From: a virus
Lineage: Duplodnaviria > Caudoviricetes
Length of the DNA: 55,619 nucleotides
Strand: one strand, 5' to 3'
Virus record (IMG/VR): IMGVR_UViG_3300042305_001248
Coordinates: 1 to 55,619 of that record
Each line of letters opens with the position of its first letter. Within the stretch, counting starts at the first letter, position 1. This document shows positions 4,681-53,036 of the stretch, piece by piece. The translations under genes were made by a program, and so were the position numbers. The notes below the pieces were generated by a model. It was not told where the DNA came from and ran no database searches. It was given only the letters and a program-made list of their open reading frames with translations.

Positions 4681-5541
4681 TCACTTGCCTTCCTGCGCCG
4701 TCGAGGCGCTCTTCTTCGGGGTGCTGGTGGGACTGGTGGAACCGGAGTGCGCCTCGCGGACGCGACGCACCCAGGAAGCGAAGTCGGGCTCCTCCAGATC
4801 GCGGAGCGGCCGGTAGGGCTTGAGCATGTAGTGCGAGGCCGCGACGGTGCGGACCTCGTAGGCGACCTGCCGCTGCCCGTCCTCGCCGCGGTCCTCGATG
4901 CGGCGCGAGGTGATGCCCACCACGTTGACGCAGCTCGCGAGGAACGAGGGGAGCGCCCGCATCGGGAGCGCGGGCTGGACGACGCGGCTCGCCTCGTCGC
5001 CCTCGCCGACGACGCGATCGTCCTGGAGCGAGAGGAAAACCACGTGCGTCGGGACGTCGCGGAAGGCGCGGATCAGCTTCTCGCTCCGGTCGCGCAGCGC
5101 GGCCCAATGCCGCTCGGTCCAGCGTTCCAGCCCGTCCTTCGCCTTCTCGGGAGGGGCCTCGCGGCGGACCTCGTTCTCCACCAGCTCGCAGGCGTCGGTC
5201 AGCGAGTCGATCACGACCGTCTCGGGCCACGCGCCCTCGTAGACGGTCGCGCTCTCGGAGCCGCGCTTCGCGGTGATCCGGAACGGCTGCGTGCGCGGCC
5301 CGTGGAGGGCCCGCACGACGTCGCGGTAGTCCTCCAGCGTCTCCATGTAGAGCGTCGGCGGGAGCGGCACGCCGCGGCGCACGGAGGCGCTGCGGACGGT
5401 CGCGAGACCCTGCCGCTCCGAGAGGAGGATCAGCGGCTTCGGGGCGCTGACGCCGATGTCCGTCTTTCCGGTTCCGGGTGGGCCGTAGATCGCGGCCTTG
5501 AGATAGCTCTCCGAGTCCGTGTCCGAGTCGATGCGCTTCAC
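4681..5541 (-). CDS. AAA_24 / Sak4-like P-loop ssDNA-annealing ATPase
   Basis: IYGPPGTGKT Walker A, TVVIDSLT Walker B, W..L...FRDVPTHVVF. Confidence 0.85.
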   Translation of the reverse strand: MKRIDSDTDSESYLKAAIYGPPGTGKTDIGVSAPKPLILLSERQGLATVRSASVRRGVPLPPTLYMETLEDYRDVVRALHGPRTQPFRITAKRGSESATVYEGAWPETVVIDSLTDACELVENEVRREAPPEKAKDGLERWTERHWAALRDRSEKLIRAFRDVPTHVVFLSLQDDRVVGEGDEASRVVQPALPMRALPSFLASCVNVVGITSRRIEDRGEDGQRQVAYEVRTVAASHYMLKPYRPLRDLEEPDFASWVRRVREAHSGSTSPTSTPKKSASTAQEGK

Positions 5542-5557
5542 GTTGTCTCTCCTTGCT

Positions 5558-5615
5558 GGTCGGCCTCGCCGACCTTGGGCTGCGCCCTCGCCGAGTCTAC
5601 CACGACCGGCGAGGG
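5558..5615 (-). promoter_or_regulatory. Two hairpins upstream of the Sak4-like gene; an extended -10-like TGG-TAGACT overlaps the loop and 3' arm of the first
   Basis: CCCTCGCCG/CGGCGAGGG stem (5585-5615); GGTCGGC/GCCGACC stem (5558-5574) followed by AGCAAGGAGAG. Confidence 0.5.
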
Positions 5616-5625
5616 AGCGAGCCGA

Positions 5626-5868
5626 TCATCTATCGATCGAGCGCCGCCACGCCTCGGCGTAGCTGACTCGGACTGCGCGGTCGTACTGACGCGCGAGCGA
5701 GGGTCCGAGGCGCTCCGGGACGAGCCCGTGCAGCCTCCAGGCGACCTCGGCCGGGGAAAGCTCCAGGACGTCCGCGTCGGCGTCCTGGAGGGCCTCCAGG
5801 GAGCAGCGCGACCGCTCCTCGCGGCAGAGCTGCTCCCCCAGGGCTCGGGCGACGGCGAGCCTCATCAC
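5626..5868 (-). CDS. Hypothetical protein (80 aa)
   Basis: GTGA-coupled ORF. Confidence 0.6.
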   Translation of the reverse strand: MMRLAVARALGEQLCREERSRCSLEALQDADADVLELSPAEVAWRLHGLVPERLGPSLARQYDRAVRVSYAEAWRRSIDR

Positions 5869-6794
5869 TCGCCCAGGATCGCGAGCCGCAGGGCGTCGCG
5901 GGCCTGCCCGATGGACGCGATCAGCTCGTCCCGCTTCGCCCCGAGGACGTCGGCGTAGGTCTCGACCTGGGCCGCGAGCTGCTCGTACCGCTCGCGGCGG
6001 ATCCCGATCGAGGCGTCGAGCTGCGCCTGCGTCTGCGCGTCCTCCGAGCCCGCCTCGGCCCGAGTCTTCGCCGCGAAGACCTCGACCTCGCGCCGCAGCG
6101 TGTCGAGCCGCGCCGAGAACGCCGTCGTCGCCGCCCTCGCGGCCTGCGCGAGGTGCTGGTGCGAGCCGGTCACCTGCCAGACCGAGAACTCGCTCTCGCC
6201 CTGCTCGCCCACCCAGCTCGCGAGCGTCTGGAGCTGCGCGAGCTTCTCTGCGGGGACGAAGTAGACGCCGCCCGCCTCGCCGCGCAGGTTCGTCGCGCAG
6301 AGGAGCGAGTCGGTACCCTTACCGTGCATCGCCCGCGAGAGGCACGCCGAGAGGTCCTCGGTGCCCGCGTAGGTCAGGATCTCCCCATACGCCTCCGCGA
6401 CCGCGAGGAGCGTCCCGTCGAGCTGATCCTCCAGCTCCAGAGCGCCGGTAGCCTTGCCGACCGCGATCCGGACCCGCTGGTCGTAGCGCACCGTTGCCGC
6501 GGTCTCGTCCTTCGTGCGGTCCGAGACCGCGTAGGTGACGCGCTCGGGCGTCTCGGAGACCTTGTCGAAGACGATCCCCGGCTTGCCGCGCCTGACGCGC
6601 TCGCACGCCCGCGTGAGGCACGCCGCGTAGCTCGGGTCGCGGGGCACCGCGTCGCCGAGCCCCATCGACTTGAACGCGGCGCGGAGCCCGTCGCGGGCGA
6701 CGAAGACGTCGCGAAGGGACCACATCGCGAGCGCGCCGACGATGTGCTCGCCATGTCCGCGTAGGACGGTCTGGATCTCCTGAGTCGGGGTCAT
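5865..6794 (-). CDS. DUF6744/DUF3150-like protein often associated with MoxR-vWA pairs
   Basis: IVGALAMWSL N-terminus, LRGxxGGVYFVP motif, coiled-coil C-terminus with Y.DVLG; family recalled, not searched. Confidence 0.65.
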   Translation of the reverse strand: MTPTQEIQTVLRGHGEHIVGALAMWSLRDVFVARDGLRAAFKSMGLGDAVPRDPSYAACLTRACERVRRGKPGIVFDKVSETPERVTYAVSDRTKDETAATVRYDQRVRIAVGKATGALELEDQLDGTLLAVAEAYGEILTYAGTEDLSACLSRAMHGKGTDSLLCATNLRGEAGGVYFVPAEKLAQLQTLASWVGEQGESEFSVWQVTGSHQHLAQAARAATTAFSARLDTLRREVEVFAAKTRAEAGSEDAQTQAQLDASIGIRRERYEQLAAQVETYADVLGAKRDELIASIGQARDALRLAILGE

Positions 6795-6831
6795 TCTGCT
6801 CTCTCCTTGCTGCCGCCCTATCGCGGCGAAG

Positions 6832-6877
6832 AGCGCGCCGAGGTCGCGAGCCTCGGTGCCGGCTGTCCGGTCGCGCT
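6832..6877 (-). ncRNA. Putative three-way-junction cis-RNA element, copy A
   Basis: AGCGCG/CGCGCT closing stem; CCGG-ACAG-CCGG; CCGAGG-CTCGCGA-CCTCGG; homologous to 13013-13055. Confidence 0.55.
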
Positions 6878-6884
6878 GGGGGCG

Positions 6885-7409
6885 TCAGTCGGCGTCGGCG
6901 GCGTCGTCGTCGTCGGCCGCGACGGCGTCGGCCGCGACGGCCTCGCGCCACGCGGCGGCATAGGCGCGCAGAACCTCGTCGCGCCGCACCCCGTAGCGGA
7001 CGAGGTGCGCCGCTCCGATGCGCTCCGCGACCTCCTCAATCGCGGCGTAGTCCCAGCCGCTCCCGTCGCCCGCCGAGGGGTCGTCCAGCACCTCGGGCGT
7101 GCAGTCGCCCGATGTGCGGTCGGCCGCGACCATGCGCTCGGCGATCCAGCGGATCGCGTGCTCGTCGGCCTCGTCGGCCTCGCCCTCGTCCTCGCCCTCG
7201 TCCTCGCCGTCGCCCTCGGCGACCGGCTCGACGATCAGGTCGCCGCGAAGCGCCTCGACGGTGGAGCCGAGCGCCTCGGCCGCGTCCCGCGAGGAGCGAT
7301 AGCCCGCGGCGCGGTCCATCGCCTCGACGGCGTCGTCAGGAGTCTCGCCCCAATAGAGTCCGAGGCTCAGGCCCGAGGTGCGGTTCGCGATGCGGTAATA
7401 GATGGTCAT
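6885..7409 (-). CDS. Highly acidic early protein
   Basis: First gene after the promoter at 7459-7486; strong RBS; D/E-rich. Confidence 0.75.
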   Translation of the reverse strand: MTIYYRIANRTSGLSLGLYWGETPDDAVEAMDRAAGYRSSRDAAEALGSTVEALRGDLIVEPVAEGDGEDEGEDEGEADEADEHAIRWIAERMVAADRTSGDCTPEVLDDPSAGDGSGWDYAAIEEVAERIGAAHLVRYGVRRDEVLRAYAAAWREAVAADAVAADDDDAADAD

Positions 7410-7458
7410 CTGCGTCTCTCCTTGCTGCTGCCGCCCTGTGCGGCGCGTCGATGGGATT

Positions 7459-7486
7459 ATCTTAGGACGCTTTTAAGCGTTGTCCA
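7459..7486 (-). promoter_or_regulatory. Early sigma70-like promoter with palindromic operator
   Basis: TGGACA-ACGCT TAAA AGCGT CC-TAAGAT (16-nt spacer); AT-rich upstream. Confidence 0.75.
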
Positions 7487-7523
7487 GTCTTTCGACGAAG
7501 TATTTTACAACCTCGCGAGATTG

Positions 7524-7742
7524 CTACGGAATCCGCCGCTCTTTTCTCTCCTCCGCCGCCTTTCGACGCTCGATCTCAGCCCGATACCGACGGAGGGCTC
7601 GACGGGCCCGCGCCAGCTCGTAGCGGCGCATCGGAGCGCCCTCGGGCTCCCTCCTCCGCTCGCAGGGGTCCGAGGCTCCGGGCCAGTCGCGACCCATCCC
7701 GCAGGCGCTACAGCGCCCCGAGGAGGCCCATCGGTGGCTCAC
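7524..7742 (-). CDS. Small CxxC-containing basic protein
   Basis: GTGA coupling; RCSACG...PC. Confidence 0.55.
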   Translation of the reverse strand: MSHRWASSGRCSACGMGRDWPGASDPCERRREPEGAPMRRYELARARRALRRYRAEIERRKAAEERKERRIP

Positions 7743-8479
7743 GGCTCCTCGGGCCAGGGCAGGGCGAGCGTGCCGCGCCTCGGGGCCGCAGGCAGGTCGC
7801 GCAGCCGCTCGCGCGCCAGCTCGACGTGTGTCTCGTCCAGGTCGCCGCCGATCCATCGGCGGCCGAGGAGCTTTGCCGCCAGGAGCGTGGTCCCGGCGCC
7901 GCAGCACGGATCGCATACCAGATCGCCGGGGCGGGTGTAGTCCTCGACGAGACGCTCCATGAGCCACAGTGGCTTTCCGCCGATGACCCCAGAACGCCCC
8001 TGCTTGTTGCCTCGCCACCCGTACTCCGGCGGGACCACGTACGCTCCGGGCAGCGCCCCCCATTGCTGGGCGGCACGCGTGCGCGGCCGAGCCGCCACGG
8101 CCCAGACCGACCACTGCGACGGGCCATCGCCAGACAGCCGAACGCGTGATCCTGGCTCCACGCACGCGAGCGGGGCAAAGGTGTATCTCTCGGCCGCGGC
8201 TAACGATGCCTCCCACGCCTTCGCAAGCACATGGTCAGTTAGCGACACGATCCACCCGCGAGTTAGCGGGGCCCAGGTGTAAACGAACTCCGCCACATCG
8301 GCCGCAGACCAGGACGCGTATACCAACGAGCCGCGCCCAACTTCCTCCATGTCGCGATACGCCGAGTGCGTGCGCTCGCTGTACGGCGCATCGACGATCA
8401 GCGTGTCCACATGCCCCACCGTCTCGCGGACGAGCTGGGCGAGGTCGCGCCAATGCAGGTGACCGACCGTCCCGATCAC
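7739..8479 (-). CDS. Amino (N6-A/N4-C) DNA methyltransferase, beta-class motif order
   Basis: IVDAPY (motif IV variant) precedes KPLWLMERLV..YTxPGDLVCDPCCGAGTT (motifs X/I). Confidence 0.85.
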   Translation of the reverse strand: MIGTVGHLHWRDLAQLVRETVGHVDTLIVDAPYSERTHSAYRDMEEVGRGSLVYASWSAADVAEFVYTWAPLTRGWIVSLTDHVLAKAWEASLAAAERYTFAPLACVEPGSRVRLSGDGPSQWSVWAVAARPRTRAAQQWGALPGAYVVPPEYGWRGNKQGRSGVIGGKPLWLMERLVEDYTRPGDLVCDPCCGAGTTLLAAKLLGRRWIGGDLDETHVELARERLRDLPAAPRRGTLALPWPEEP

Positions 8480-8862
8480 TCGTCGCCCTCGGCGAAAAGC
8501 GAGAGCTGGTGGATGTTCTCCATCGCCTCGCGGAGCCGCGTCTCGGCCGCGCTGACGTCCTCCTTCGCGCTCTTGATCGCGTCGGCGCGAGCCTGCTTCG
8601 CCTCCTCCAGCGTCTGCCACGCATCCTCGATCCGGTGGAGCTTCGCCAGGGCTCGGGCAGGCTCGCCGACCGGGATCCCCTCCTCCATCGAGGCGCGGAG
8701 GCCTGCGAGCGCGACCGCCATGAATCCGGCGTGCTCCTTTCGCAGCTCCTGGAGCTGCTCCTTCGTCGCCTCCCACGCGAGGAAGCGGCGGCTGATCTGC
8801 TGCTCGCGCTCGGTCGGGAGCGCCTCCTGTCCGGTCATCGTCGTCGGTGCCTTCTTCGTCAT
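8476..8862 (-). CDS. Coiled-coil protein with a C-terminal QLSLF beta-clamp-binding-like motif
   Basis: GAGGAGA RBS; ends ...HQLSLFAEGDE. Confidence 0.7.
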   Translation of the reverse strand: MTKKAPTTMTGQEALPTEREQQISRRFLAWEATKEQLQELRKEHAGFMAVALAGLRASMEEGIPVGEPARALAKLHRIEDAWQTLEEAKQARADAIKSAKEDVSAAETRLREAMENIHQLSLFAEGDE

Positions 8863-8872
8863 TGTCGTCTCC

Positions 8873-10057
8873 TCAGAATGGGGGCTCGGGTGCGGTCATC
8901 GCCGCGGTGATCTCCTCGTGCGTCTCGACCGCGACGCGGAACGACTCGCGCAGCTCGGGCGCGGACGGATCGAGGCAGACGCTCCGGTAGACGCAGGGCA
9001 TCGACCACGCGCTCGTGCAATTGCCGGGGTTCCTGGTCACGAGCCCGCCGTCGAGACGCGCCTCCCGCATCCGAGAGCCGTCGAGGAACGCCTCCCTCCG
9101 CCAGCGATCCAGCTCGGCATCGCTGCGGTAGAACTCCCGCCGCGAGAGGAACGTGTCGCCCTTCGCGATGAGCCTCGCGAGGAGGTCAGCCTGGGCCTCC
9201 GTGCGCTGGTAGCCTCGCTCCTCCTGCTGCTCCAGAGCGCGGGCGTAGATGCTCGGGAGCGTGTCGATCGCCGAGACCGAGACCATGCCCCGCTGCGTGA
9301 TCTCCGGGGTCCGCGGAGCCCGCTTGCGGAGGACGTTGTACGCGATCCTCCCGGTCGGGACCTCGCCGCGCTCGATACGCGCCCCGAGGTCGCGCAGGCT
9401 CGGAGGCACCGAGAGAAGCGAGAGGATCCGCCCCTGCCGGATGTACTCGCGCACGGCCCATAGATAGCCCGCCATCTGCGGGTCCATCTCGACGCGCCGA
9501 TCGATGGTCGAGACCTCCGCGCTCGTTGTCTTGTGATCGACCACGACGAGGTCCTGCGCCTCGGTGTCGTAGGCGATCAGGTCGATCACCCCGGCAAGCT
9601 GGAGGTGCGCGATCCGCCGCCCCATCGAGTCGATCAGCGGCGTCTGGAACGGGACCTCGACCCCGAGCGGGACGAGCGTCCGGAGGTCGCGCTCGTGCGT
9701 CTGCCAGTAGTGGCGGATCATCCAGAGCGCGGTCTCGAACGCCTTCGCTCCCTCCTCCTCGGACTGCTCCGAGGACGGCTCCCACGCCTCGCGGTAGCGC
9801 CTCGTCGCGCCCTCCGCGGCGTCGAGGACCTCGGGCAGCGCGGCCTCGCTGGCTCGCATCCGAGCCGCAGCGATCGCGAGATAGCCCGCGGCGAGACCAG
9901 CGTGGATCGCCGACCCGAACGAGAGCGGCGGAGCGACTGTCTTCGGGCGCAGACGCTCGACGTAAGCGAACGACCACTTCTGGCCGCAGTCGCGGAACGT
10001 CTGCACCTCCGAGTTGCTGATCACGGTGAGCTGCGGCTTCGAGCGGCGCTGCTTCAC
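8873..10057 (-). CDS. PD-(D/E)XK RecB/Cas4-like exonuclease
   Basis: SNSE..TFRDC..KW..Y, FGSAIH, GVEVPF, GVIDL, VVDHKT, Q...Y, C-terminal C..C..C. Confidence 0.88.
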   Translation of the reverse strand: MKQRRSKPQLTVISNSEVQTFRDCGQKWSFAYVERLRPKTVAPPLSFGSAIHAGLAAGYLAIAAARMRASEAALPEVLDAAEGATRRYREAWEPSSEQSEEEGAKAFETALWMIRHYWQTHERDLRTLVPLGVEVPFQTPLIDSMGRRIAHLQLAGVIDLIAYDTEAQDLVVVDHKTTSAEVSTIDRRVEMDPQMAGYLWAVREYIRQGRILSLLSVPPSLRDLGARIERGEVPTGRIAYNVLRKRAPRTPEITQRGMVSVSAIDTLPSIYARALEQQEERGYQRTEAQADLLARLIAKGDTFLSRREFYRSDAELDRWRREAFLDGSRMREARLDGGLVTRNPGNCTSAWSMPCVYRSVCLDPSAPELRESFRVAVETHEEITAAMTAPEPPF

Positions 10058-10278
10058 GACGGCACCTCCGCGAGAGCCGCCGCGACGAGCCCGCCGAGGG
10101 TCTCGGCGCGGTACGTCTGGAGCGAGAGCCTGGGGAGCCCGTGTGCGGACCGCCGCTCGACGGTCGCCTCCGCGCACCACTCGCCCCGGTGGAGCCAGAC
10201 CCGGATCTGCGCTGGACCCCTCTCGCGGAGCTGGGCCTCCAGCTCGCGGACCGTCATGTCGTCGTATCGCTTCGTCAT
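10054..10278 (-). CDS. Hypothetical protein (74 aa)
   Basis: ATG behind hairpin and GAGGA RBS. Confidence 0.65.
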   Translation of the reverse strand: MTKRYDDMTVRELEAQLRERGPAQIRVWLHRGEWCAEATVERRSAHGLPRLSLQTYRAETLGGLVAAALAEVPS

Positions 10279-10307
10279 CGTCTCGTCCTCTCTGCGGCCT
10301 TCGCCGC

Positions 10308-11777
10308 TCACATCGAAAACACGCCGTCGAGCTTCGCGCTCGCGCCGTCCAGGTCTCCCGGCGCGAGCGCGATCGCCTGCGTCGCTCGGTCGCTGATCCA
10401 GGCCGGGACCGCGCTCGCGATCCCGACCGCGAAGAGCGCCGCGCCGTGCGCTCGGAGCCCGTCGAGCTGCCGGAGCTGCCCGTCGCGGTCGTGATCGACG
10501 CCGTCCGTGATCAGGACGACGTCGGCCCGAGCGAAGGCCCGCTGCTCCGCCGCGTCGCGGAGGAGCCGGTTCGCCTCGCCGAGCGCGCTCGCGATCGAGG
10601 TCCCGCCCCCGGAGAAGGACGAGACGCAGGCGAGGAGCGCGTCGAGGCCGACCGCCTTCGGCTGCGCGAAGCGATCGACGCTGGTCACCGCGCCGTCGAA
10701 ATGCACGACCGAGAAGGCGCGGTTCTGACGCGCCGCGACCTCCATCATCGCGAGCGCGACCGCCTTCGCCCACTCGTCGCGAGCGCCGCGCATCGAGCCG
10801 CTCTCGTCGAGGCAGAGGACGATCGGGCCCTCGGCGCGATGGTCCTGCCCGCGGAGCTGGTACTGGAGCGCCGACCGCTCCAGGAGGCGACGGTAGAGGA
10901 GCGCCTCCAGGTCCTCGTCGGCGAGGAGGACCGACTCGCTCGGGAGGAGCCGCCCGAGGTCGTCGCCAGCCTCGACGTCGCACAGCTCTTCGCGACCGTG
11001 CGCGGCCTTCGTGTTCTGCTTCTGGATCGCCTGCGCTCGGAGGCGACCGGCGAGCTTCGCGATCCTCCGCAGCCGCTCGTCGGAGCGGAGCCGCTGGACG
11101 ACCTCCGAGCGCGGACCCTGGATCCTCCCCGGCGAGCCCGCCTCGGAGCCGCAGCCGAGACCCGTCGCCGCCTCCTCCAGCTCCCCGAGCTGCGCGTCCG
11201 CCTTGGACGCAGCCGTCCGGAGCGCCCTGCGGACGCGGGAGACCGCCTCGCGGGCCCGCTGCGCTGCGGCCTCGTCCGCCGCCTCCGCGGCCTCTGCGCG
11301 GGCCTCCAGGCCGGGGAGACGGCCCGAGCGCGGGTTCGCCTCGCGGACCGACTCCGCGGCCTCTCGGGCCTGCTGCGCGTCCTCCTCGGGAGGCTGGACG
11401 ACCGGAGCGAGCGCGTCGAGCGCCTGCGCCGCCGCGAGCCCCGAGGCCCAAGCGTCGCCCTCGGCGCGAGCCTGGAGCGCCCGCCACTCGGGGAGGCTCT
11501 CCGCCTGCGAGAGCAGATCGCGGACCCACGCCGCGCCCTTCGGCTCGCCCTCGACGGGCTCGCAGCCGAGCCCGTAGAGCGACCCGTAGACCTCGCGGGC
11601 GAGCGAGCCCCAGGGCCCGCCGTGCGCCCCGAGGACGCGACCGAACTCGCCCTCCGCCTTCGCCTCGTCCACGGCGAGGGAGCGGACCCACCCGCCGACC
11701 GCCAGCGCAGCGTCCGCGCCCGTCTCTAGCGAGACCATCGCGGCCTCGCGGTTCGCCTGTCGCCTGTCCTGCTCCAT
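10308..11777 (-). CDS. von Willebrand factor A domain protein (ViaA/CoxE-like MoxR partner)
   Basis: GDDLGRLLPSE, GPIVLCLDESGSM (MIDAS), GGGT, DVVLITDG. Confidence 0.92.
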   Translation of the reverse strand: MEQDRRQANREAAMVSLETGADAALAVGGWVRSLAVDEAKAEGEFGRVLGAHGGPWGSLAREVYGSLYGLGCEPVEGEPKGAAWVRDLLSQAESLPEWRALQARAEGDAWASGLAAAQALDALAPVVQPPEEDAQQAREAAESVREANPRSGRLPGLEARAEAAEAADEAAAQRAREAVSRVRRALRTAASKADAQLGELEEAATGLGCGSEAGSPGRIQGPRSEVVQRLRSDERLRRIAKLAGRLRAQAIQKQNTKAAHGREELCDVEAGDDLGRLLPSESVLLADEDLEALLYRRLLERSALQYQLRGQDHRAEGPIVLCLDESGSMRGARDEWAKAVALAMMEVAARQNRAFSVVHFDGAVTSVDRFAQPKAVGLDALLACVSSFSGGGTSIASALGEANRLLRDAAEQRAFARADVVLITDGVDHDRDGQLRQLDGLRAHGAALFAVGIASAVPAWISDRATQAIALAPGDLDGASAKLDGVFSM

Positions 11778-11815
11778 CGCTCTCTCCTCGCTGTCAGCCC
11801 TGCGCCGACGAGTGC

Positions 11816-11843
11816 ATCCTAGCACGCTTCCGAGCGTCGTCTA
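11816..11843 (-). promoter_or_regulatory. Early sigma70-like promoter with palindromic operator
   Basis: TAGACG-ACGCT CGGA AGCGT GC-TAGGAT (16-nt spacer, TG extension). Confidence 0.75.
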
Positions 11844-11850
11844 CTTTTCG

Positions 11851-12978
11851 TCAGAGGTCCAGCATCCGAGCGACCGCTTCGCGCAGCTCCGCGGAGCGGG
11901 CCTCCAGCTCGCCGACGAGGGCCCCGATCTTCCTCGCGCTCGCGGGGCTCGCCTGCGCCTGGAGGGCGCGGAGCTTCGCGACGCCCTTCCCCAGCTCGCG
12001 TCGGGTCGAGGGAGCCTTCGCCTCGAAGGCGGGGTCCGTCGGGGGCGGGAGCTTCGCGATGACCTCAACGAGCCCGTCGAAGGCCCGCTGCGCGTCGGCC
12101 AGCTCTGCGGAGGCGAAGCGGGCGCAGGCAGCGGCGACCTTCGGGGCCTGCTCGGGCACGTTCCAGAGCACGCTCGCGAGGACCGCGAGGTGCTCGGGAG
12201 AGACCTCCGAGAGACCGTCGAGCCACGCAGCGGCGCGGAGGAGCGCCGCGCACTTCCTCCAGCGTCGATCCGAGGCGACGATGCCCTCGCGGGCCAGCTC
12301 GGAGCGGAGCTGCCAGAGCGCCGAGACGACCGCCTTCGGGAGCGCGACCTGGGCGACCTCGGCCCGAGCCGCCTCCCACTCGTCGAGCGTGATCGTCGCC
12401 GTCGAGCGGAGGCTCGTCGTGCCCGTGATGATCGCCTCGAACGAGTCGGGCGCGTGGACGTACTCGACCCAATGCCGCAGGAGGAAGCGGTCCCAAAGCG
12501 CTCCCAGCTCGGCCGACTCGGGCAGCTCGTTCGACGCGCCGACGCAAGTCAGGAGCGGGACCGCCTGCGGCGTCGGACCGTTGTGGAACGTCCGCTCGTT
12601 GATCACGGCGAGAAGCGCGTTGAGGACCGCGCTGTTCGCCTTGAAAATCTCGTCCAAGAACGCGATGTGCGCCTCCGGGAGCTTGCCCGTCGTGACGCGG
12701 GTGAAGCGGTCGGCCTTGAGGGCCGAGAGCGAGACCGGCCCGAACAGCTCCTCGGGCGTCGAGAACTTCGAGAGGAGCCACTCGAAGTGACTCGCGCCCT
12801 GGATCGCGCCCGCGAACGCTCGGGCAAGCTCGGACTTCGCGGTGCCCGGAGGGCCGAGGAGGAGGATGTGCTCGCGGGCGAGCGCCGCGATCAGGAGGGA
12901 GTCGATCTCGCGGTCGCGCTCGACGAACGCGGACTGGAGCGAGGAGCGGATAGACTGGATCTTCGAGAGCGTCGTCAT
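11851..12978 (-). CDS. MoxR-family AAA+ ATPase (RavA-like)
   Basis: HILLLGPPGTAKS, STPEELFGP, FLDEIFKANSAVLNALL..INER, GASNELP, LWDRF, SDRRW. Confidence 0.93.
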   Translation of the reverse strand: MTTLSKIQSIRSSLQSAFVERDREIDSLLIAALAREHILLLGPPGTAKSELARAFAGAIQGASHFEWLLSKFSTPEELFGPVSLSALKADRFTRVTTGKLPEAHIAFLDEIFKANSAVLNALLAVINERTFHNGPTPQAVPLLTCVGASNELPESAELGALWDRFLLRHWVEYVHAPDSFEAIITGTTSLRSTATITLDEWEAARAEVAQVALPKAVVSALWQLRSELAREGIVASDRRWRKCAALLRAAAWLDGLSEVSPEHLAVLASVLWNVPEQAPKVAAACARFASAELADAQRAFDGLVEVIAKLPPPTDPAFEAKAPSTRRELGKGVAKLRALQAQASPASARKIGALVGELEARSAELREAVARMLDL

Positions 12979-13012
12979 GGTGCCTTCCCTTGCTGCCGCT
13001 TCGTGCGGCGAT

Positions 13013-13055
13013 GCGCCCTGCCGGTAGCGAGCCGGTCCCGATCCTCTCGGGGCGC
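13013..13055 (-). ncRNA. Putative three-way-junction cis-RNA element, copy B
   Basis: GCGCC/GGCGC closing stem; CCGA-GAGGA-TCGG; CCGG-CTCGCTA-CCGG. Confidence 0.55.
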
Positions 13056-13063
13056 TGCGGGGC

Positions 13064-13339
13064 TCAGGCAGCGAGCCCGCGAGCGAACCTCTTTGCCGCC
13101 GCGAGAGCAGCCCTCGGCGAGCCCGCCGCGGGGAAGGACGCGAGCACCTCGCCCTCGCTGCCGCAGACGTCGTAGCCGCCGACGATGTAGCGGCGCGACA
13201 TGCCCGACCAGAGCGTCTCGTGGATGACCTGGATCTCGCCGATCTCCTCGCCGTCGCGCTGCACCGAGATAGAGCCGCCGTTGCCGGGGCCCGCGCTGTC
13301 GATCCGTCCGAAGGTCACCTTGTTCTGCGTCGGGGTCAT
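13064..13339 (-). CDS. First early gene, hypothetical (91 aa)
   Basis: Directly after the promoter at 13382-13409; AAGGAGAG RBS. Confidence 0.75.
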   Translation of the reverse strand: MTPTQNKVTFGRIDSAGPGNGGSISVQRDGEEIGEIQVIHETLWSGMSRRYIVGGYDVCGSEGEVLASFPAAGSPRAALAAAKRFARGLAA

Positions 13340-13381
13340 CGTGCTCTCCTTGCTGCCGCCCTGCGCGGCGTCGATGGGGAG

Positions 13382-13409
13382 ACTCTACCACGCTTCGGAG
13401 CGTCGTCTA
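13382..13409 (-). promoter_or_regulatory. Main early promoter with palindromic operator
   Basis: TAGACG-ACGCT CCGA AGCGT GG-TAGAGT (16-nt spacer, TG extension); A7 tract upstream. Confidence 0.78.
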
Positions 13410-13442
13410 GTCTTTTTTTCGTCTACCCGAATTTCGTCCCGC

Positions 13443-13471
13443 TGGACTCCGTCCGGGCTCCGCGTTACAGT
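13443..13471 (+). promoter_or_regulatory. Divergent rightward promoter for the HNH gene
   Basis: TGGACT-N17-TACAGT. Confidence 0.55.
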
Positions 13472-13533
13472 CAGAGGGTCAGACGTCCAGGTCTGATGGG
13501 CGACGGCGTGCCGAGCGACGGGCAGACGGGAGA

Positions 13534-13627
13534 CCGGAGCCCAGAGCGAGGTCCCGGAGTCCCCGACCCACCCCAAGACGGACCGGGGGGTGGGGTTGGG
13601 GCTCCTGCGGCCTCACTCTGGGCTCCG
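13534..13627 (+). repeat. Long imperfect inverted repeat in the HNH leader
   Basis: CCGGAGCCCAGAG/CTCTGGGCTCCGG outer arms; GGAGTCCCCGACCCACCCC/GGGGTGGGGTTGGGGCTCC inner arms. Confidence 0.8.
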
Positions 13628-13651
13628 GGAGGTAGAGAAGAGGCAGAGAAG

Positions 13652-14170
13652 ATGATCCGATCCTTGGAAGATCTCAGGTCGAGGACCACCCCTCTAGACG
13701 AGTGCTGGATCTGGTCCGGCGGACTCACCCAAAAAGGGTACGGCTTCTTCATCCGAGGAAGGAAGAAGCTCCGCGTCCACCGTCTAGCCCTGGAGCTGAC
13801 GGGGGTCCGCGTCACCTCCGAGGATCTCGTGCTGCACTCGTGCGATAGGCCAGCGTGCTGCAACCCCGCCCACCTGCGCGTGGGGACGCACGAGGACAAC
13901 GTCCGCGACGCGATGGATAGAAACCGCGTGGCGTGCGGCACTCGAAAGAAAAACGCGAAGCTCACCGACGAGCGAGTTCGCGTAGCGAGAGCCGACTACT
14001 CGCACGGTGCCACGGTCTCATCCCTGGCAAAAAGGTTCTCGGTGGACTACCGAACCATGAAAGACGTCGTCCTGGGACGCGCCTGGAAACACGTGAACGC
14101 CGAAGGGCTCAGCCCCTCGCGGGGTGAGCCCTTCTTGGCGGCTGCCGTCGATTCCAGCGACAGTAGCTAG
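13652..14170 (+). CDS. HNH homing-type endonuclease with C-terminal DNA-binding helix region
   Basis: CWIWSG...GYG...VHRL...VLHSCDRPACCNPAHL..GT..DN..D; NAKLT...LAKRF. Confidence 0.9.
   Translation: MIRSLEDLRSRTTPLDECWIWSGGLTQKGYGFFIRGRKKLRVHRLALELTGVRVTSEDLVLHSCDRPACCNPAHLRVGTHEDNVRDAMDRNRVACGTRKKNAKLTDERVRVARADYSHGATVSSLAKRFSVDYRTMKDVVLGRAWKHVNAEGLSPSRGEPFLAAAVDSSDSS
14102..14134. terminator. Strong hairpin, probable terminator (possibly bidirectional)
   Basis: GAAGGGCTCA-G-CCCC-TCGC-GGGG-TGAGCCCTTC. Confidence 0.55.
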
Positions 14171-14271: not shown

Positions 14272-14849
14272 ATGATCGCAGCTCTCTACGTTGAGCGAGG
14301 AGGGGCCTACTACGACCTCCCCGAGATCGACCCCTGGGACGAGGCACGAGACGCTAGACGCTACGAGGGGCCGCATCCGGTCATCGCGCACCCTCCGTGC
14401 TCGACATGGTGCCGCCTCGCCGCGGTGAACGAGGCGCGATGGGGGCACCCAATCGGGAGCGACGGAGGCTGTTTCGAGGCGGCACTCTCGTCGGTGCGCC
14501 GCTGGGGCGGCGTCCTGGAGCATCCCGCGTACACCTACGCCTGGGGAGCCTTCGGCCTGCCGCGACCCGTGCGCGACGGCTGGCAGCAGCTCCTCGGCGA
14601 GCGAGCCTGGGTCACCGAGGTCTCCCAAAGCGCCTACGGACACGACGCGAGGAAGCGGACGTGGCTCCTCTACGTCGGAGAGCGGCCTCCGGAGTTGCTC
14701 GACTGGAGCGACCCGGAGGGCACCGCCTGGGTCGGGAACGACGGCTCTGCCGGCGCGAAGCGGCAGCTATCGAAGGCCGAAGCGAAGCGGACCCCCCCCC
14801 CTTCCGCGACCTCCTGGTCCGTCTCGCGAAGGGCGCTAGGCCCCGCTAG
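14272..14849 (+). CDS. Minimal C5-cytosine methyltransferase-like protein, frameshifted at a C10 tract (14792-14801)
   Basis: AHPPC (motif IV), VLEHP (VI), Q..YGH.ARKRTW (VIII); the FRDLL end lies in another frame after the poly-C. Confidence 0.7.
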
Positions 14850-15204
14850 GACGGATCGAGGCGACCGCGTCCCTCCAGCGGTCCAGCTCCCGCTGCATCG
14901 AGGACATGCGCTCGTCGCAGTCCCGGCCCTGAGCCTCTAGCTCCCCTCGGAGCGACTCGACCCGCTGGAGGCAGTCGCGCTCGCGCTCGTCGGAGGCCGA
15001 GTAGAGCCGCTTGGCTTCGTCCAGGTCGCGTCGGGCGTGCGCGTAGGCGTCGAGGACCGTCTGGCTCCTATGAGCCTCCTGCTCGGCCGCTATACGCGCC
15101 GCGTCGGCCCTGCTCTTCGCCGTGGTGCGGATCGCGAAGCCAATCGCTCCTCCGAGCCCTCCGGAGGCGATGGTCGCGAGGATCAGGTCTACGGCTGCGC
15201 CCAT
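14836..15204 (-). CDS. Membrane-anchored coiled-coil protein (holin or i-spanin candidate)
   Basis: N-terminal hydrophobic helix plus long coiled coil; follows the lysin genes. Confidence 0.55.
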   Translation of the reverse strand: MGAAVDLILATIASGGLGGAIGFAIRTTAKSRADAARIAAEQEAHRSQTVLDAYAHARRDLDEAKRLYSASDERERDCLQRVESLRGELEAQGRDCDERMSSMQRELDRWRDAVASIRPSGA

Positions 15205-15211
15205 AGGGGTC

Positions 15212-15838
15212 TCACTCCGGGGTGACGTCGGCGTTCTCGACGTCGGCGAGAGGTTCAAGCTGGCTCGGTCGGGCGTAGAAGTCGTTCGACGTCCCACCGC
15301 AGTCTACGTCGAGGAGGCCGAGGCGCGTCGCTCGGGCGCGGTCCATGGTCCCGCCCCAGTCGTGGACCGGACCGTCGCAGAGGCCCCACTCGTCTACGTC
15401 GTCCAGGCGCCAGGAGACGACCTCGCGGGCGCGTTCGAGGACGGCGAGCCAGCGGGCGCGGTAGGAGACCCACGGAGGATGCGGCTCGACGCGAACGAGC
15501 CCGCCTCGGCCTGGGCGCGTGATCACGCGAGGCCACGAGTACGGCTCGCCGCCGTCCGCTCGGAGTCCTGCGACCCAGGGGCGCAGGCGCGAGGGCTCCA
15601 TGCCGGTCGCTCTCGGCGAGTAGCTCCGGGCGAAGGTCTCGTAGCGCATCGCGTGGCGCTCCGCTCCTCGGAGGAGGACCTCGTGGATCGCGTAGCCGTC
15701 GCCGGTATCCCAGCACTCCCAACCGGCCTCGGAGACGCAGATGCGGGCGAGGAGGAGCGCGTCGGTCGCGAGGTCGGCGCGAGCGGAGGAGGCCCAGGCG
15801 AGGAGCAGGGCGAGGAGGAGGGGAGCGAGTCGGGTCAT
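15212..15838 (-). CDS. Secreted cell-wall-hydrolase-like protein (SleB/Hydrolase_2-like)
   Basis: Signal peptide ending ...ARA-D; LLLARICVSEAG catalytic-Glu-like motif. Confidence 0.5.
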   Translation of the reverse strand: MTRLAPLLLALLLAWASSARADLATDALLLARICVSEAGWECWDTGDGYAIHEVLLRGAERHAMRYETFARSYSPRATGMEPSRLRPWVAGLRADGGEPYSWPRVITRPGRGGLVRVEPHPPWVSYRARWLAVLERAREVVSWRLDDVDEWGLCDGPVHDWGGTMDRARATRLGLLDVDCGGTSNDFYARPSQLEPLADVENADVTPE

Positions 15839-41337: not shown

Positions 41338-42423
41338 TCAGGACGACCGCACGACGCCTCGCTGCGCCCTCGACGTAGCCCTCGCCGCTGCGAGCCGCGA
41401 CGCTTGGTGCTCCGGATCGATCCCTGCGCCGTCGCGCCTCCGAGCTGCCTCGATGCGACTCGGCGAGAGCGGTCGGGAGATCGGAGTCTCCTCCCACTCC
41501 GGGAGCCACGGGATCACGACCTCGCGATCGTTCGGTCGCGCCGGAGGCTGCATATAGACGCGCCCTGCGCCGTCGACGAAGGGCTCTTCGAGGCGCCGGA
41601 TCTGCCCGTGGACCACGACCGAGTCGAACGCCGTGCGGTTGTCGAAGGTCGCGAGGATTTTTTTTCGGAGTTGCGGGAACGCCTGCCGCTGCTCGAAGAG
41701 GCCCTCCATCCTCGCGACCGAGTAGGCCCGAGCCGTCTCGGTCCGGACGATCCTCCAGGCCCAGGAGCGGTAGCGGACGAAGAGCCCCTCCGGGATCTCC
41801 TCCTCGACGAGGCGGACGACGCCGCTCAGAGTCTCTCTCGCCGCGAGCGAGACCGTCCCCGTCGGCCCGCCGTGCCCGCAAAGCTCGTCGACCATGTCCC
41901 GCTGGGAGATCCCGGCGATCAGGCCGCGCCGCATCCGGGTCTCGAACTCCGCGATCATCGCCTGCCCGTAGCGATCGACGCTCGTCGCCCTCTGCGCGAG
42001 GAGCGAGGAGTCGATCCTCAGCGTCCGCATCATCGTCGCCGCAGGACGAAGCGCCAGAGGCCTCGCGATGCCCCGAAACCGGGCGTCAAGCGTCGCGAGG
42101 AGGCGGAAGGTCTCGGAGTAGCCCTCCGCGCTCGACGCGCTCGTGGAGGCCTCCAGGAGCCCGGAGAGATTCCTCGCGACGCGACGACGGACGAGGTCGA
42201 TCTGCCGCTGGTAGGAGACCATCGACGCGGGCGTGAACCGCTCGTCCGAGTCGGCGTAGCGACGCAGGCGCCGCCGCAGGAGGCGGTCCGCCGCGTCGAG
42301 GTCTCGGAGCAGCTCCGCGTTCGCCGCTCGTCCCGCTCGGTTCGTCGCGGTGACAACGCGATCCGCTCGCCCGAGAGAAGCTCGAAGCGCCGCGTCGACC
42401 CTCGCCCGAGTCTCGGGATCCAC
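41338..42423 (-). CDS. Minor head morphogenesis protein (Mu gpF / SPP1 gp7-like)
   Basis: RIVRTETARAY, D.RT..DS...HGQ, PPARPNDR. Confidence 0.85.
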   Translation of the reverse strand: MDPETRARVDAALRASLGRADRVVTATNRAGRAANAELLRDLDAADRLLRRRLRRYADSDERFTPASMVSYQRQIDLVRRRVARNLSGLLEASTSASSAEGYSETFRLLATLDARFRGIARPLALRPAATMMRTLRIDSSLLAQRATSVDRYGQAMIAEFETRMRRGLIAGISQRDMVDELCGHGGPTGTVSLAARETLSGVVRLVEEEIPEGLFVRYRSWAWRIVRTETARAYSVARMEGLFEQRQAFPQLRKKILATFDNRTAFDSVVVHGQIRRLEEPFVDGAGRVYMQPPARPNDREVVIPWLPEWEETPISRPLSPSRIEAARRRDGAGIDPEHQASRLAAARATSRAQRGVVRSS

Positions 42424-51901: not shown

Positions 51902-52338
51902 CCGACGTCCTCAGGCCAGCGACCGTGCTCGACGAAGTGCCGGAGGTCGTCCTCCGACCTCGTCGCGAAGCCGTCCTGCGGCCCTGCGTGGCGAGTGACC
52001 GTCTCGGTCTTCTGGCTCCGGACGAGCCCGATCCGATCAAGGATGGAATCGGCCGCGGCGAGGCGGATCTTCGACTCGTGCTGCCCGACGATCGCCTGCC
52101 CGAGCGAGCCGATCGCCGCATCGGCGAGGAACTCCAGACGCGCCCGAGCCCGCGCTACGCGAGCCTCCCGCAGCTCCCGGAGCTTCGCCTGCGCGTCCTC
52201 GGTCCGGAGGTAGTCGTAGACCGTCCGCTCCGCCGTCTGGAGTCGCTCCCCGATCTGCCGGTTCGAGAGCCCGTCCGCCGCGAGCTGGAGCACCGCCTCG
52301 CGCTTCGAGCTGCCCATCTTCGTCCGAGGTCCGCTCAC
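51898..52338 (-). CDS. Terminase small subunit-like HTH protein
   Basis: GLSNRQIGERL...ERTVY HTH, RLAAA.SILDR.G; coupled to terL. Confidence 0.7.
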   Translation of the reverse strand: MSGPRTKMGSSKREAVLQLAADGLSNRQIGERLQTAERTVYDYLRTEDAQAKLRELREARVARARARLEFLADAAIGSLGQAIVGQHESKIRLAAADSILDRIGLVRSQKTETVTRHAGPQDGFATRSEDDLRHFVEHGRWPEDVG

Positions 52339-53036
52339 TTCGCCGCCTCCTGCCTCGCCCGCACCGCAGGATCGACCGCGGGGAGCATCTGGACCCGCAT
52401 CATCCACGCCCGAAGGTCGCGCTCTCGAAAGCGCACCGTCCGAGGGCCGAGGCGGACGAAGGGAACCTGCCCTCGATGGACGCGCACTCGCAGGCACCCG
52501 TTCGTCACGCCGAGGAGCTTCGCCGCCTCGTCGTAGGTCATCAGAGGCTCGTCCTGGATCGTCAGTACCACCTCCCGAGCTTGTAACGCAGCGAAACGAG
52601 GCGCAACGTCGAGCCCGAGCGTTTCCCGCAAAAAAGCCCGCGCTCTCTCGCGCACCCTCGGGCGGCAATAGCTCGGGCACCTCCCGCTCGGGAACGGGAT
52701 CGTCGCCGCTCGGACCTCTCGGCCTCCGACCTCGACCAGCCGCCACCGAAAGCGCCGACGCGGGTCGAGGCCGAACGCGAGCGCGACTCTGCCCCCGCAG
52801 AGGACCAGCGGGTGCGAGCCCGCCTTCTGCGCGAGGGCTGCCGCAGCCGCACGGAGGGCCCACCGCGGCTCCGCAGCGCGCTCGACGAGGTGAGCCCCCT
52901 CCGCCAGCTCGAAGAGGGCGCTGCGGCTCTCCAGGCCCGCCAGACGGGCCAGCCTCGTTCCGCTCGCTCCCTCCCACGGTCCCGCCCAGGGAGCGCCCGG
53001 AGGAGGATGCTCGCCGACGAAGACCGGCAGCGGCAC
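52335..53036 (-). CDS. Uracil-DNA-glycosylase-like domain fused to an excisionase-type (HTH_17) domain
   Basis: VFVGEHP, GASG.RL, VLCG.., IPFPSG; C-terminal LMTYDEAAKLLGV...L...V..G.VP..RLG...RF...DL..W. Confidence 0.65.
   Translation of the reverse strand: MPLPVFVGEHPPPGAPWAGPWEGASGTRLARLAGLESRSALFELAEGAHLVERAAEPRWALRAAAAALAQKAGSHPLVLCGGRVALAFGLDPRRRFRWRLVEVGGREVRAATIPFPSGRCPSYCRPRVRERARAFLRETLGLDVAPRFAALQAREVVLTIQDEPLMTYDEAAKLLGVTNGCLRVRVHRGQVPFVRLGPRTVRFRERDLRAWMMRVQMLPAVDPAVRARQEAAK

Follow-up and report, generated by a model that had tools for sequence, protein, structure and literature searches.

We analysed the complete virus record IMGVR_UViG_3300042305_001248 (55,619 bp with direct terminal repeats, about 70% GC; hereafter the window), in which genes for a MoxR-type AAA+ ATPase, a vWA-domain protein and a protein of the DUF6744 family lie on the minus strand between positions 5865 and 13409 among repeated promoter-like and structured RNA elements. 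Their conserved same-strand neighbourhood strongly supports a functional link between the three large genes. On comparative grounds we interpret the locus as a new phage variant of the MoxR-vWA ternary systems, combined with regulatory cassettes that resemble the PeSLs of T4-type phages. The reading that we favour, with moderate confidence, is that of a self-contained three-gene phage module and a separate set of modular early-region expression cassettes which overlap at this locus. To our knowledge MoxR-vWA pairs have been noted in many viral genomes and have a known function in one archaeal virus only. The three large genes are:

11851-12978, minus strand: MoxR-type AAA+ ATPase (bpMoxR) with the P-loop GPPGTAKS
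10308-11777, minus strand: vWA protein with a helical N-terminal part and a C-terminal vWA domain, its MIDAS metal site (pattern DxSxS...T...D) intact at D324, S326, S328, T393 and D425
5865-6794, minus strand: DUF6744-family protein with an alpha/beta N-domain (residues 1-210) and a C-terminal bundle of long helices

The survey of this triad covered 45 viral loci retrieved by MoxR, in which DUF6744 was called by a family hidden Markov model (HMM). A vWA gene was present in 44 of these, the exception being a 2.4-kb fragment, and DUF6744 in 37; wherever all three genes occurred (37/37) they lay on the same strand; the gaps had a median of 96 nt, and the nearest partner was never more than 2.7 kb away. 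Writing D, M and V for DUF6744, MoxR and vWA, the gene order was D-M-V in 20 loci, M-V-D in 12, M-D-V in three, and V-M-D and D-V-M in one each. Retrieval by DUF6744 yielded 60 metagenome loci, and MoxR and vWA were found in nine of the 11 that are flanked by 4 kb or more on either side. Clustering of the neighbouring genes in 49 non-identical loci gave vWA in 49, MoxR in 48 and DUF6744 in 42 with the next family in at most 10, so that the triad is the sole conserved core among the neighbours, and the triad loci span a GC range of 41-73%. These counts bear out the linkage of the three genes that a first-pass annotation, made from the letters of the window, had proposed. The triad is also found in a cultured Firmicutes phage, the Moorella phage MTATph1, which carries DUF6744 (5.6e-61), three small open reading frames (ORFs), MoxR and vWA in that order. 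A tblastn search with DUF6744 against 50,697 phage records gave no match, though the profile finds the family in MTATph1, and searches of the phage collection returned no cultured phage close to that of the window. A protein scan of genome contigs likewise gave no match; a degenerate AGGVYFVP pattern picked out 120 loci in genome contigs, three of them with the triad and one with MoxR-vWA alone.

The proteins that the first-pass annotation had named as MoxR, vWA and DUF6744-like each match their Pfam families; the structural side of the comparison it had called for yielded no fold relative of known function for DUF6744. For the ATPase bpMoxR (PF20030) scores 1e-61 and 207.8 bits against a cut-off of 27, followed by AAA_5 (95.6 bits) and AAA_lid_8 (58.6 bits); the P-loop GPPGTAKS fits GxxxTAKS, a variant described for bp/FtsH-type MoxR proteins in the accessible part of PMC7159879, and the Walker B motif AFLDEIF fits hhhhDE. 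In the vWA protein the Pfam VWA domain (7e-12) takes up residues 319-458 of 489 with no other domain match, and since the protein ends about 30 residues past this domain it has neither a beta-propeller nor an effector domain. Among 48 vWA sequences the MIDAS residues D324, S328 and D425 are invariant and S326 and T393 at least 90% conserved.

PF20529 (31.3 bits, cut-off 27, residues 12-69) is the sole Pfam match of the DUF6744 protein of the window, and is matched almost over its full length by the family members P0109, P0087 and MTATph1 CDS0119. A profile of its relatives retrieves 797 clusters at 50% identity, and the most similar atlas clusters are mostly viral; the protein atlas search with DUF6744 returned DUF6744 clusters alone, and the longer members of the family contain no informative fusions. 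The structural models are confident, with pLDDT values of 88.8 (full length) and 96.0 (N-domain); in BFVD the structurally related proteins are viral and uncharacterised, and one belongs to a haloarchaeal tailed virus. RnlA and CorA were rejected as fold relatives (best full-model match E = 3.7e-3, TM about 0.2), and the best PDB match of the N-domain (E = 1.8e-2) was equally unusable; a sequence-profile search of the PDB gave coiled-coil-like matches only. Prediction of a complex between vWA (alignment A7) and DUF6744 (alignment A5) gave a score of 0.00 (mark 0.32), which speaks neither for nor against binding. PADLOC returned nothing relevant for the eight proteins submitted, and a full-text literature search for 'DUF6744' found no paper, although phage or DUF6744-linked systems may be among those in the supplementary source data of PMC7159879.

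Three copies of a putative sigma70-like promoter with a palindrome in its spacer stand ahead of these genes and the small ORFs orf91 and acid174:

13382-13409, minus strand: promoter P1, -35 TAGACG, 16-nt spacer with the 14-bp palindrome ACGCTccgaAGCGT followed by gg, -10 TAGAGT; precedes orf91 and MoxR
11816-11843, minus strand: promoter P2, -35 TAGACG, palindrome ACGCTcggaAGCGT followed by gc, -10 TAGGAT; in the 73-nt spacer between MoxR and vWA
7459-7486, minus strand: promoter P3, -35 TGGACA, palindrome ACGCTtaaaAGCGT followed by cc, -10 TAAGAT; precedes acid174 and DUF6744

The consensus of the three is a -35 box T(A/G)GAC(G/A), a 16-nt spacer containing ACGCT-N4-AGCGT and a -10 box TA(G/A)(G/A)(G/A)T. 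The exact palindrome ACGCT-N4-AGCGT occurs three times in 55.6 kb, every time inside one of these promoters; allowing up to one mismatch gives 10 matches where 3.5 are expected, and the 20-nt promoter core is found at zero mismatches twice (0.03 expected). A strict sigma70 scan passes P3 at 9/12 positions. The first-pass annotation had described one unit, consisting of promoter, hairpin with ribosome-binding site, small ORF, three-way junction (3WJ), hairpin with ribosome-binding site and large gene, as present twice, with a third promoter copy ahead of vWA. All of these elements were located on the minus strand where that annotation had put them, the third promoter being P2 (11843-11816).

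The strongest support for the idea of a regulon comes from relatives of the window, namely L077 (84% identity in MoxR and 79% in DUF6744) and L080 (71% and 52%), with L048, L078 and L079 as fragments of the L077 type. In L077 the MoxR operon diverges from a unit of leader ORF and DUF6744 with one control region between them, and the palindrome promoter stands before MoxR, before vWA and before the leader-DUF6744 unit, with a fourth copy after DUF6744. In L080 the three triad genes are adjacent, and its 20.9 kb contain exactly three copies of an unrelated motif, GATTCTTTCTTGAMC followed by TAGAAC-like -10 boxes, one each before leader plus DUF6744, before MoxR and before vWA. Three layouts and two unrelated promoter sequences thus agree in giving each triad unit its own copy of a phage-specific promoter, and the sharing of a promoter across the three units, which had been noted in the window, recurs in both relatives. 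Scanning viral contigs with the operator-promoter pattern (24 loci) and with the hairpin-B motif of the 3WJ (four loci) brought up nothing beyond chance except the known relative L048 (re-fetched as L075). Directly upstream of P3 (7490-7525, minus strand) lies an AT-rich stretch, TAGCAATC-N9-TTGTAAAATA, which has a counterpart at 6590-6625 of L077; L077, L048 and L079 all keep it upstream of the fourth operator promoter, and its possible roles are those of an UP-like element, of a second promoter or of a site for some factor.

A short hairpin next to the Shine-Dalgarno (SD) site is the second repeated element:

13344-13369, minus strand: leader hairpin GCCGC-gcagg-GCGGC, abutting the SD AGCAAGGAGAG of orf91
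12984-13009, minus strand: leader hairpin GCCGC-acgaa-GCGGC, abutting the SD of MoxR
11785-11809, minus strand: leader hairpin GTCGGC-gcagg-GCTGAC, abutting the SD of vWA, with one sense-strand G-U pair
7416-7444, minus strand: leader hairpin GCCGC-acagg-GCGGC, 3 nt ahead of the SD of acid174
6801-6827, minus strand: leader hairpin GCCGC-gatagg-GCGGC, abutting the SD of DUF6744

In all five a stem of 5-7 bp stands next to AGC(A/G)AGGAG. Such hairpins also precede three further genes of the window, namely the AAA_24 gene, a 74-aa ORF at 10278 and the plus-strand gene at 14272-14940, where GGCTAC-gag-GTAGCC abuts the SD. Altogether 8 of the 15 SD-plus-start sites of the window carry one, compared with 8.6% in shuffles, and all eight lie between 5557 and 14257, in the early region. 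The proportion is similarly high in the relatives (L077 4/5, L048 6/7, L078 3/3, L079 2/2, L080 6/10), with stems that vary among GCCTCC, GGCTCC, GCGGCT, GCCGGT, GCCCG, GTGGC and others. At MoxR the stem is GCCGC/GCGGC in the window and GCGGCT/GGCCGC in L077, and at vWA GTCGGC/GCTGAC and GCCGGT/ACCGGC respectively; across the SD hairpins of the relatives three G-U pairs are found on the sense strand. Differing stems at orthologous genes together with sense-strand G-U pairs point to a selected RNA hairpin. The SD hairpin is a general trait of early-arm translation starts, reaching beyond the five genes listed, so that the first-pass view of hairpin and 3WJ as the wiring of this particular regulon has to be given up in favour of general early-region or lineage-wide cassettes.

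The third element is the 3WJ, of which the window holds two copies:

13013-13055, minus strand: 3WJ, A-type, starting 8 nt past the orf91 stop
6832-6877, minus strand: 3WJ, B-type, starting 7 nt past the acid174 stop

Each consists of a closing stem and two hairpins, which is the minimum-energy fold of the isolated core. Because the folding energy is ordinary and a loose descriptor of the junction also matches five coding sites in the window, its significance rests on comparison with relatives. A strict descriptor, which asked for Watson-Crick pairing in the closing stem, for hairpin A and for a hairpin B whose 7-nt loop reads YTC(A/G)NNA, was run over 1.197 Mb on both strands. It found two copies in the window, three in L048, two in L077 (one in a shifted register), one in L078, two in L079 and one in L080; outside the lineage the one match, seen in L087 and again in L088, its duplicate, closes with a stem of 4 bp and is likely due to chance. 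Without exception the 11 true copies share one orientation, on the coding strand, and stand 6-9 nt past a TGA stop; they measure 43-51 nt. They comprise eight distinct sequences with five sets of closing stems, five of hairpin A and four of hairpin B. Eight copies are followed within 3-7 nt by a hairpin-SD and start codon, and the other three, past the DUF6744 stop in L048, L077 and L079, by CTCGAAAAA, then an AT-rich stretch and after it the next promoter. In the window no U-tract comes after the 3WJ copies.

A covariance model of the B-type recovers seven copies at E <= 4e-12, an additional one at L078 654-702 among them, with nothing else at that level; it did not recover the A-type copies. 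In the B-type alignment 93.8% of cells are paired compared with 78.8% in shuffles (0/500 reach the observed value) and at most 52% in slid controls, and compensatory changes occur in 15 cells (0/500 shuffles), figures that come from six distinct rows aligned by fitting them to the model. The A-type copy of the window is 100% identical to that of L078 over 47 nt and 98% identical to that of L079 over 50 nt, with unrelated flanking genes. Judged by comparison of its copies, the 3WJ is a multi-copy repeat family of this lineage with compensatory changes in its stems. Rfam gave no match at the gathering score in the whole window and none at E <= 1 over 5500-13700. MAFFT alignments of the copies were dropped as inconsistent with the structure, and a relaxed 3WJ descriptor returned only noise.

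The small ORFs that stand between these elements differ from relative to relative:

13064-13339, minus strand: orf91, a lineage-specific small ORF, beginning MTPTQ like DUF6744
6885-7409, minus strand: acid174, an acidic small ORF found in close relatives only

orf91 and DUF6744 have a common leader with a 19-nt exact match and share their first five codons (MTPTQ). Among 5.8 billion sequences, orf91 has one protein cluster besides its own and acid174 five, and PHROGs has no match for orf91, orf128, acid174, orf80 or DUF6744. In L077, MoxR is found without the preceding leader ORF (orf91) and without the 3WJ, and in L077 and L048 a 76-aa leader precedes DUF6744 in place of the 174-aa acidic ORF of the window. 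The variable leaders, the cassette absent from L077 and the few clusters indicate that the small ORFs are lineage-specific and exchangeable, and the first-pass proposal that they vary while the triad stays is thereby borne out. Comparison among relatives places a repeated sigma70-like putative promoter and a stem-loop at the borders of variable ORFs, with insertions and deletions, as in PeSLs, and the repeats may be the recombination points at which small ORFs are swapped. The 91-aa ORF that precedes MoxR in MTATph1 was considered as a homologue of orf91 and rejected.

Comparable arrangements with other sequences were seen in two more loci. In L003 (2100-2220 and 4400-4570) a 415-aa ORF and MoxR have a common promoter-like region, SD leader and first codons MTQTQ, mirroring the MTPTQ of orf91 and DUF6744. 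The distant relative L004 (4850-4945 and 6585-6650) has an unrelated two-hairpin junction of its own, present twice, each time after a small ORF, once before MoxR and once before vWA, which suggests that the theme of small ORF, structured spacer and triad gene recurs with a different sequence.

Nearly all genes of the window are encoded on the minus strand. From 13409 downwards the leftward early arm reads orf91, MoxR ATPase, vWA, a 74-aa ORF, a PD-(D/E)XK nuclease, orf128, a DNA methylase, acid174, DUF6744, orf80, an AAA_24 ATPase and an SSB-like protein. Divergent from P1 and upstream of it are two plus-strand genes, an HNH/His-Me endonuclease ORF (13220-14170) and the gene at 14272-14940, which has no assigned family; the structural genes lie at 16.5-52 kb, distant from MoxR, vWA and DUF6744. 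Freshwater/lake-water metagenome runs hold near-identical contigs of 5500-13700, with pieces in X4 that show 0-1 differences over 5795-13059 and 15 contigs in X8 that are at least 99% identical to the stretch. Three side observations concern other parts of the window. ARAGORN calls a tRNA-Arg (anticodon gcg) at 41996-42075 (minus strand) within the high-GC3 ORF 41338-42423, which is either a false call or a genuine phage tRNA. The minus-strand ORF 14836-15297 has a sub-threshold Pfam match to EACC1 (E = 0.0045, 17.4 bits against a cut-off of 23.6), a domain named in the paper on MoxR-vWA ternary systems (PMC7159879, accessible part), and the match is probably coiled-coil noise. The minus-strand ORF 52335-53036 has a C-terminal HTH_17 domain (8.5e-8), the sole DNA-binding domain in the ten ORFs scanned.

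Taken together, we propose the following working model. By analogy with RavA-ViaA, CbbQ-CbbO and the p618/p892 pair of ATV, a MoxR hexamer would carry vWA docked on its ring, vWA would grip an acidic peptide of a client through its MIDAS, and ATP hydrolysis would then remodel or release the client, with DUF6744 serving as a dedicated third subunit, either the targeting adaptor or the client itself. The module would be transcribed from the first promoters of the early arm, with every unit under its own operator-controlled promoter, the 14-bp spacer palindrome being a putative operator for a dimeric regulator; a promoter copy for each unit suggests that the three units are co-regulated. The SD-abutting hairpin may be a leader that works for each cistron autonomously and lends the transcript stability or insulation. 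The 3WJ could be an intercistronic attenuator, or a processing or 3'-end-protecting structure, and since it follows the stop codon at a constant spacing, a ribosome that terminates there would presumably sit over the 5' arm of the closing stem. That these are the first genes expressed, as the first-pass annotation had it, is suggested by position, with P1 heading the leftward gene run; the further ideas of that annotation, a host-remodelling or anti-defence role of the module and small ORFs that are its substrates, are conjectural. A more far-reaching version seems to us possible but doubtful. Here DUF6744-MoxR-vWA would be a ternary MoxR machine that is widespread among viruses, encoded by them and not described so far, a counterpart on the phage side to the MoxR-vWA conflict systems of bacteria; made at the onset of infection, and with DUF6744 as the targeting subunit, it would remodel or disable some complex of the host. 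The spacer of 3WJ and SD hairpin would represent a new structured intercistronic RNA class whose fixed 6-9 nt spacing from the upstream stop couples translation termination of an exchangeable leader ORF to transcription or processing of the next gene.

Several observations weigh against the working model. DUF6744 is undetectable in 8 of the 45 viral MoxR-vWA loci, two of the 11 well-flanked DUF6744 loci are without MoxR-vWA, and the 3.5 kb between DUF6744 and vWA in the window exceed the distance in every other locus (maximum 2.7 kb). The DUF6744 models match nothing in the PDB at E <= 1e-3, giving no fold relative of known function. P1 and P2 fail the strict sigma70 scan that P3 alone passes, and no candidate regulator or repressor for the palindrome was found among the ten ORFs scanned, the HTH_17 domain lying in a distant ORF. 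The whole 3WJ spacers show no gain in folding energy over shuffles (z = +0.88 and -0.22), and the covariation draws on 6-8 distinct sequences with few independent events and a model-fitted alignment. Parts of the region are covered in the RNA library X24 by short contigs from a 90-97% relative, and since one of these (13239-13468) extends across and upstream of P1 they are uninformative on transcript starts, ends or level.

Other explanations of the same material have to be weighed against a self-contained early module with separate expression cassettes. Viral MoxR-vWA pairs, including ATV p618/p892 and those of jumbo phages, are assigned to tail or virion assembly in the literature (PMC7824862 and PMC7159879, accessible parts), and MoxR-vWA(-DUF6744) could accordingly be a virion-assembly chaperone instead of an early intracellular remodeller. 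We regard this as unlikely, given that the triad genes are at the promoter-proximal end of the replication/recombination arm, alongside the PD-(D/E)XK nuclease, AAA_24, SSB-like and methylase genes and distant from the structural genes, and that the AAA-vWA pair of haloarchaeal siphoviruses falls within a replication/accessory module (PMC7911831, accessible part). A module heading the early/replication arm most likely acts early and inside the cell rather than in virion assembly.

The 3WJ might alternatively act as DNA, as a single-strand or cruciform site for recombination, homing or replication, or as a cassette border like integron attC. Its copies are islands of 98-100% identity amid unrelated flanks with half-elements left in L077 and L079, the ORF content of the relatives differs precisely at these elements, the hairpin-B loop changes from TCGCGA to TCATGA, both palindromic 6-mers, and an HNH endonuclease gene adjoins P1. 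The single coding-strand orientation and fixed distance past the stop of all descriptor-defined copies are set against this, as is variation of the stems by compensatory substitution around constant loops, and the hairpin-SD and start codon that follow eight copies fit a role in mRNA; we therefore hold a DNA role to be quite improbable. Least probable of all, and already disfavoured, is the notion that the promoter, leader and 3WJ repeats are scars of recent duplication with no regulatory role and that the adjacency of the genes is chance. The close likeness of the window copies, such as the 19-nt match between the orf91 and DUF6744 leaders, and the unremarkable fold energies would suit it. 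The relatives nevertheless retain the architecture in other sequences: the stems differ, L080 uses promoters of another type and L077 has its units arranged divergently. The triad, moreover, recurs over loci of 41-73% GC and in a Firmicutes phage.

A consistently linked third partner would turn the vague annotation of 'ATPase + vWA' into a defined, testable three-part module, and should the module indeed act on host targets early in infection, phages would have in it a takeover or counter-defence device of a new kind. For work with high-GC phages and hosts, the operator-promoter, the insulating leader hairpin and the 3WJ between cistrons could serve as compact natural parts.

The comparisons with known systems that follow draw on the accessible parts of the papers cited. 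Bacterial MoxR-vWA ternary conflict systems are described in VMAP, iSTAND, FtsH and beta-propeller types (Kaur et al. 2020, PMC7159879). Like these, the phage loci hold MoxR, vWA and a dedicated third gene together on one strand, the commonest order (third gene, MoxR, vWA) is that of the VMAP type, the ATPase has bpMoxR as its best Pfam match and the GxxxTAKS P-loop, and the vWA protein has a long helical N-terminal region. Unlike them, the phage system is virus-encoded, its third component is DUF6744 and not VMAP, iSTAND, FtsH or a TPR/beta-propeller protein, its vWA protein is without a beta-propeller or effector domain, and its order is loose, with five arrangements. The Pfam scan and the model show an alpha/beta domain and long helices in the third protein and none of the TPR, beta-propeller and membrane segment of the beta-propeller type, and Pfam gives PF20529 alone, with no VMAP-C domain. 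The lack of a propeller, a VMAP-C domain and an effector domain thus points to a virus-borne variant with a new third component. The viral MoxR-vWA pairs of ATV (p618/p892), jumbo phages and haloarchaeal siphoviruses (PMC7824862, PMC7911831) also place an AAA+ MoxR beside a gene for a vWA-MIDAS protein, and in haloviruses the pair stands in a replication/accessory module as it does here (PMC7911831). The accessible parts of these two papers make no mention of a third conserved partner, and the jumbo-phage vWA has a metallopeptidase domain (PMC7824862) which that of the window does not.

The cassettes in turn find their closest parallel in the PeSLs of T4-type phages (PMC2839356, PMC4122927), which are likewise small repeated cassettes of a sigma70-like promoter and a stem-loop, located between small variable ORFs of early regions, with insertions, deletions and replacements at the cassettes. 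Terminator activity and mini-circles are PeSL traits; the likeness of the window cassettes to PeSLs covers sequence and comparative features. The window phage differs further in its high GC, in a 3WJ that has no U-tract and is followed by a separate SD-abutting hairpin, and in the palindromic operator within its putative promoter. With these differences, the locus would extend the PeSL idea of recombination-prone regulatory cassettes past the T4-type phages.

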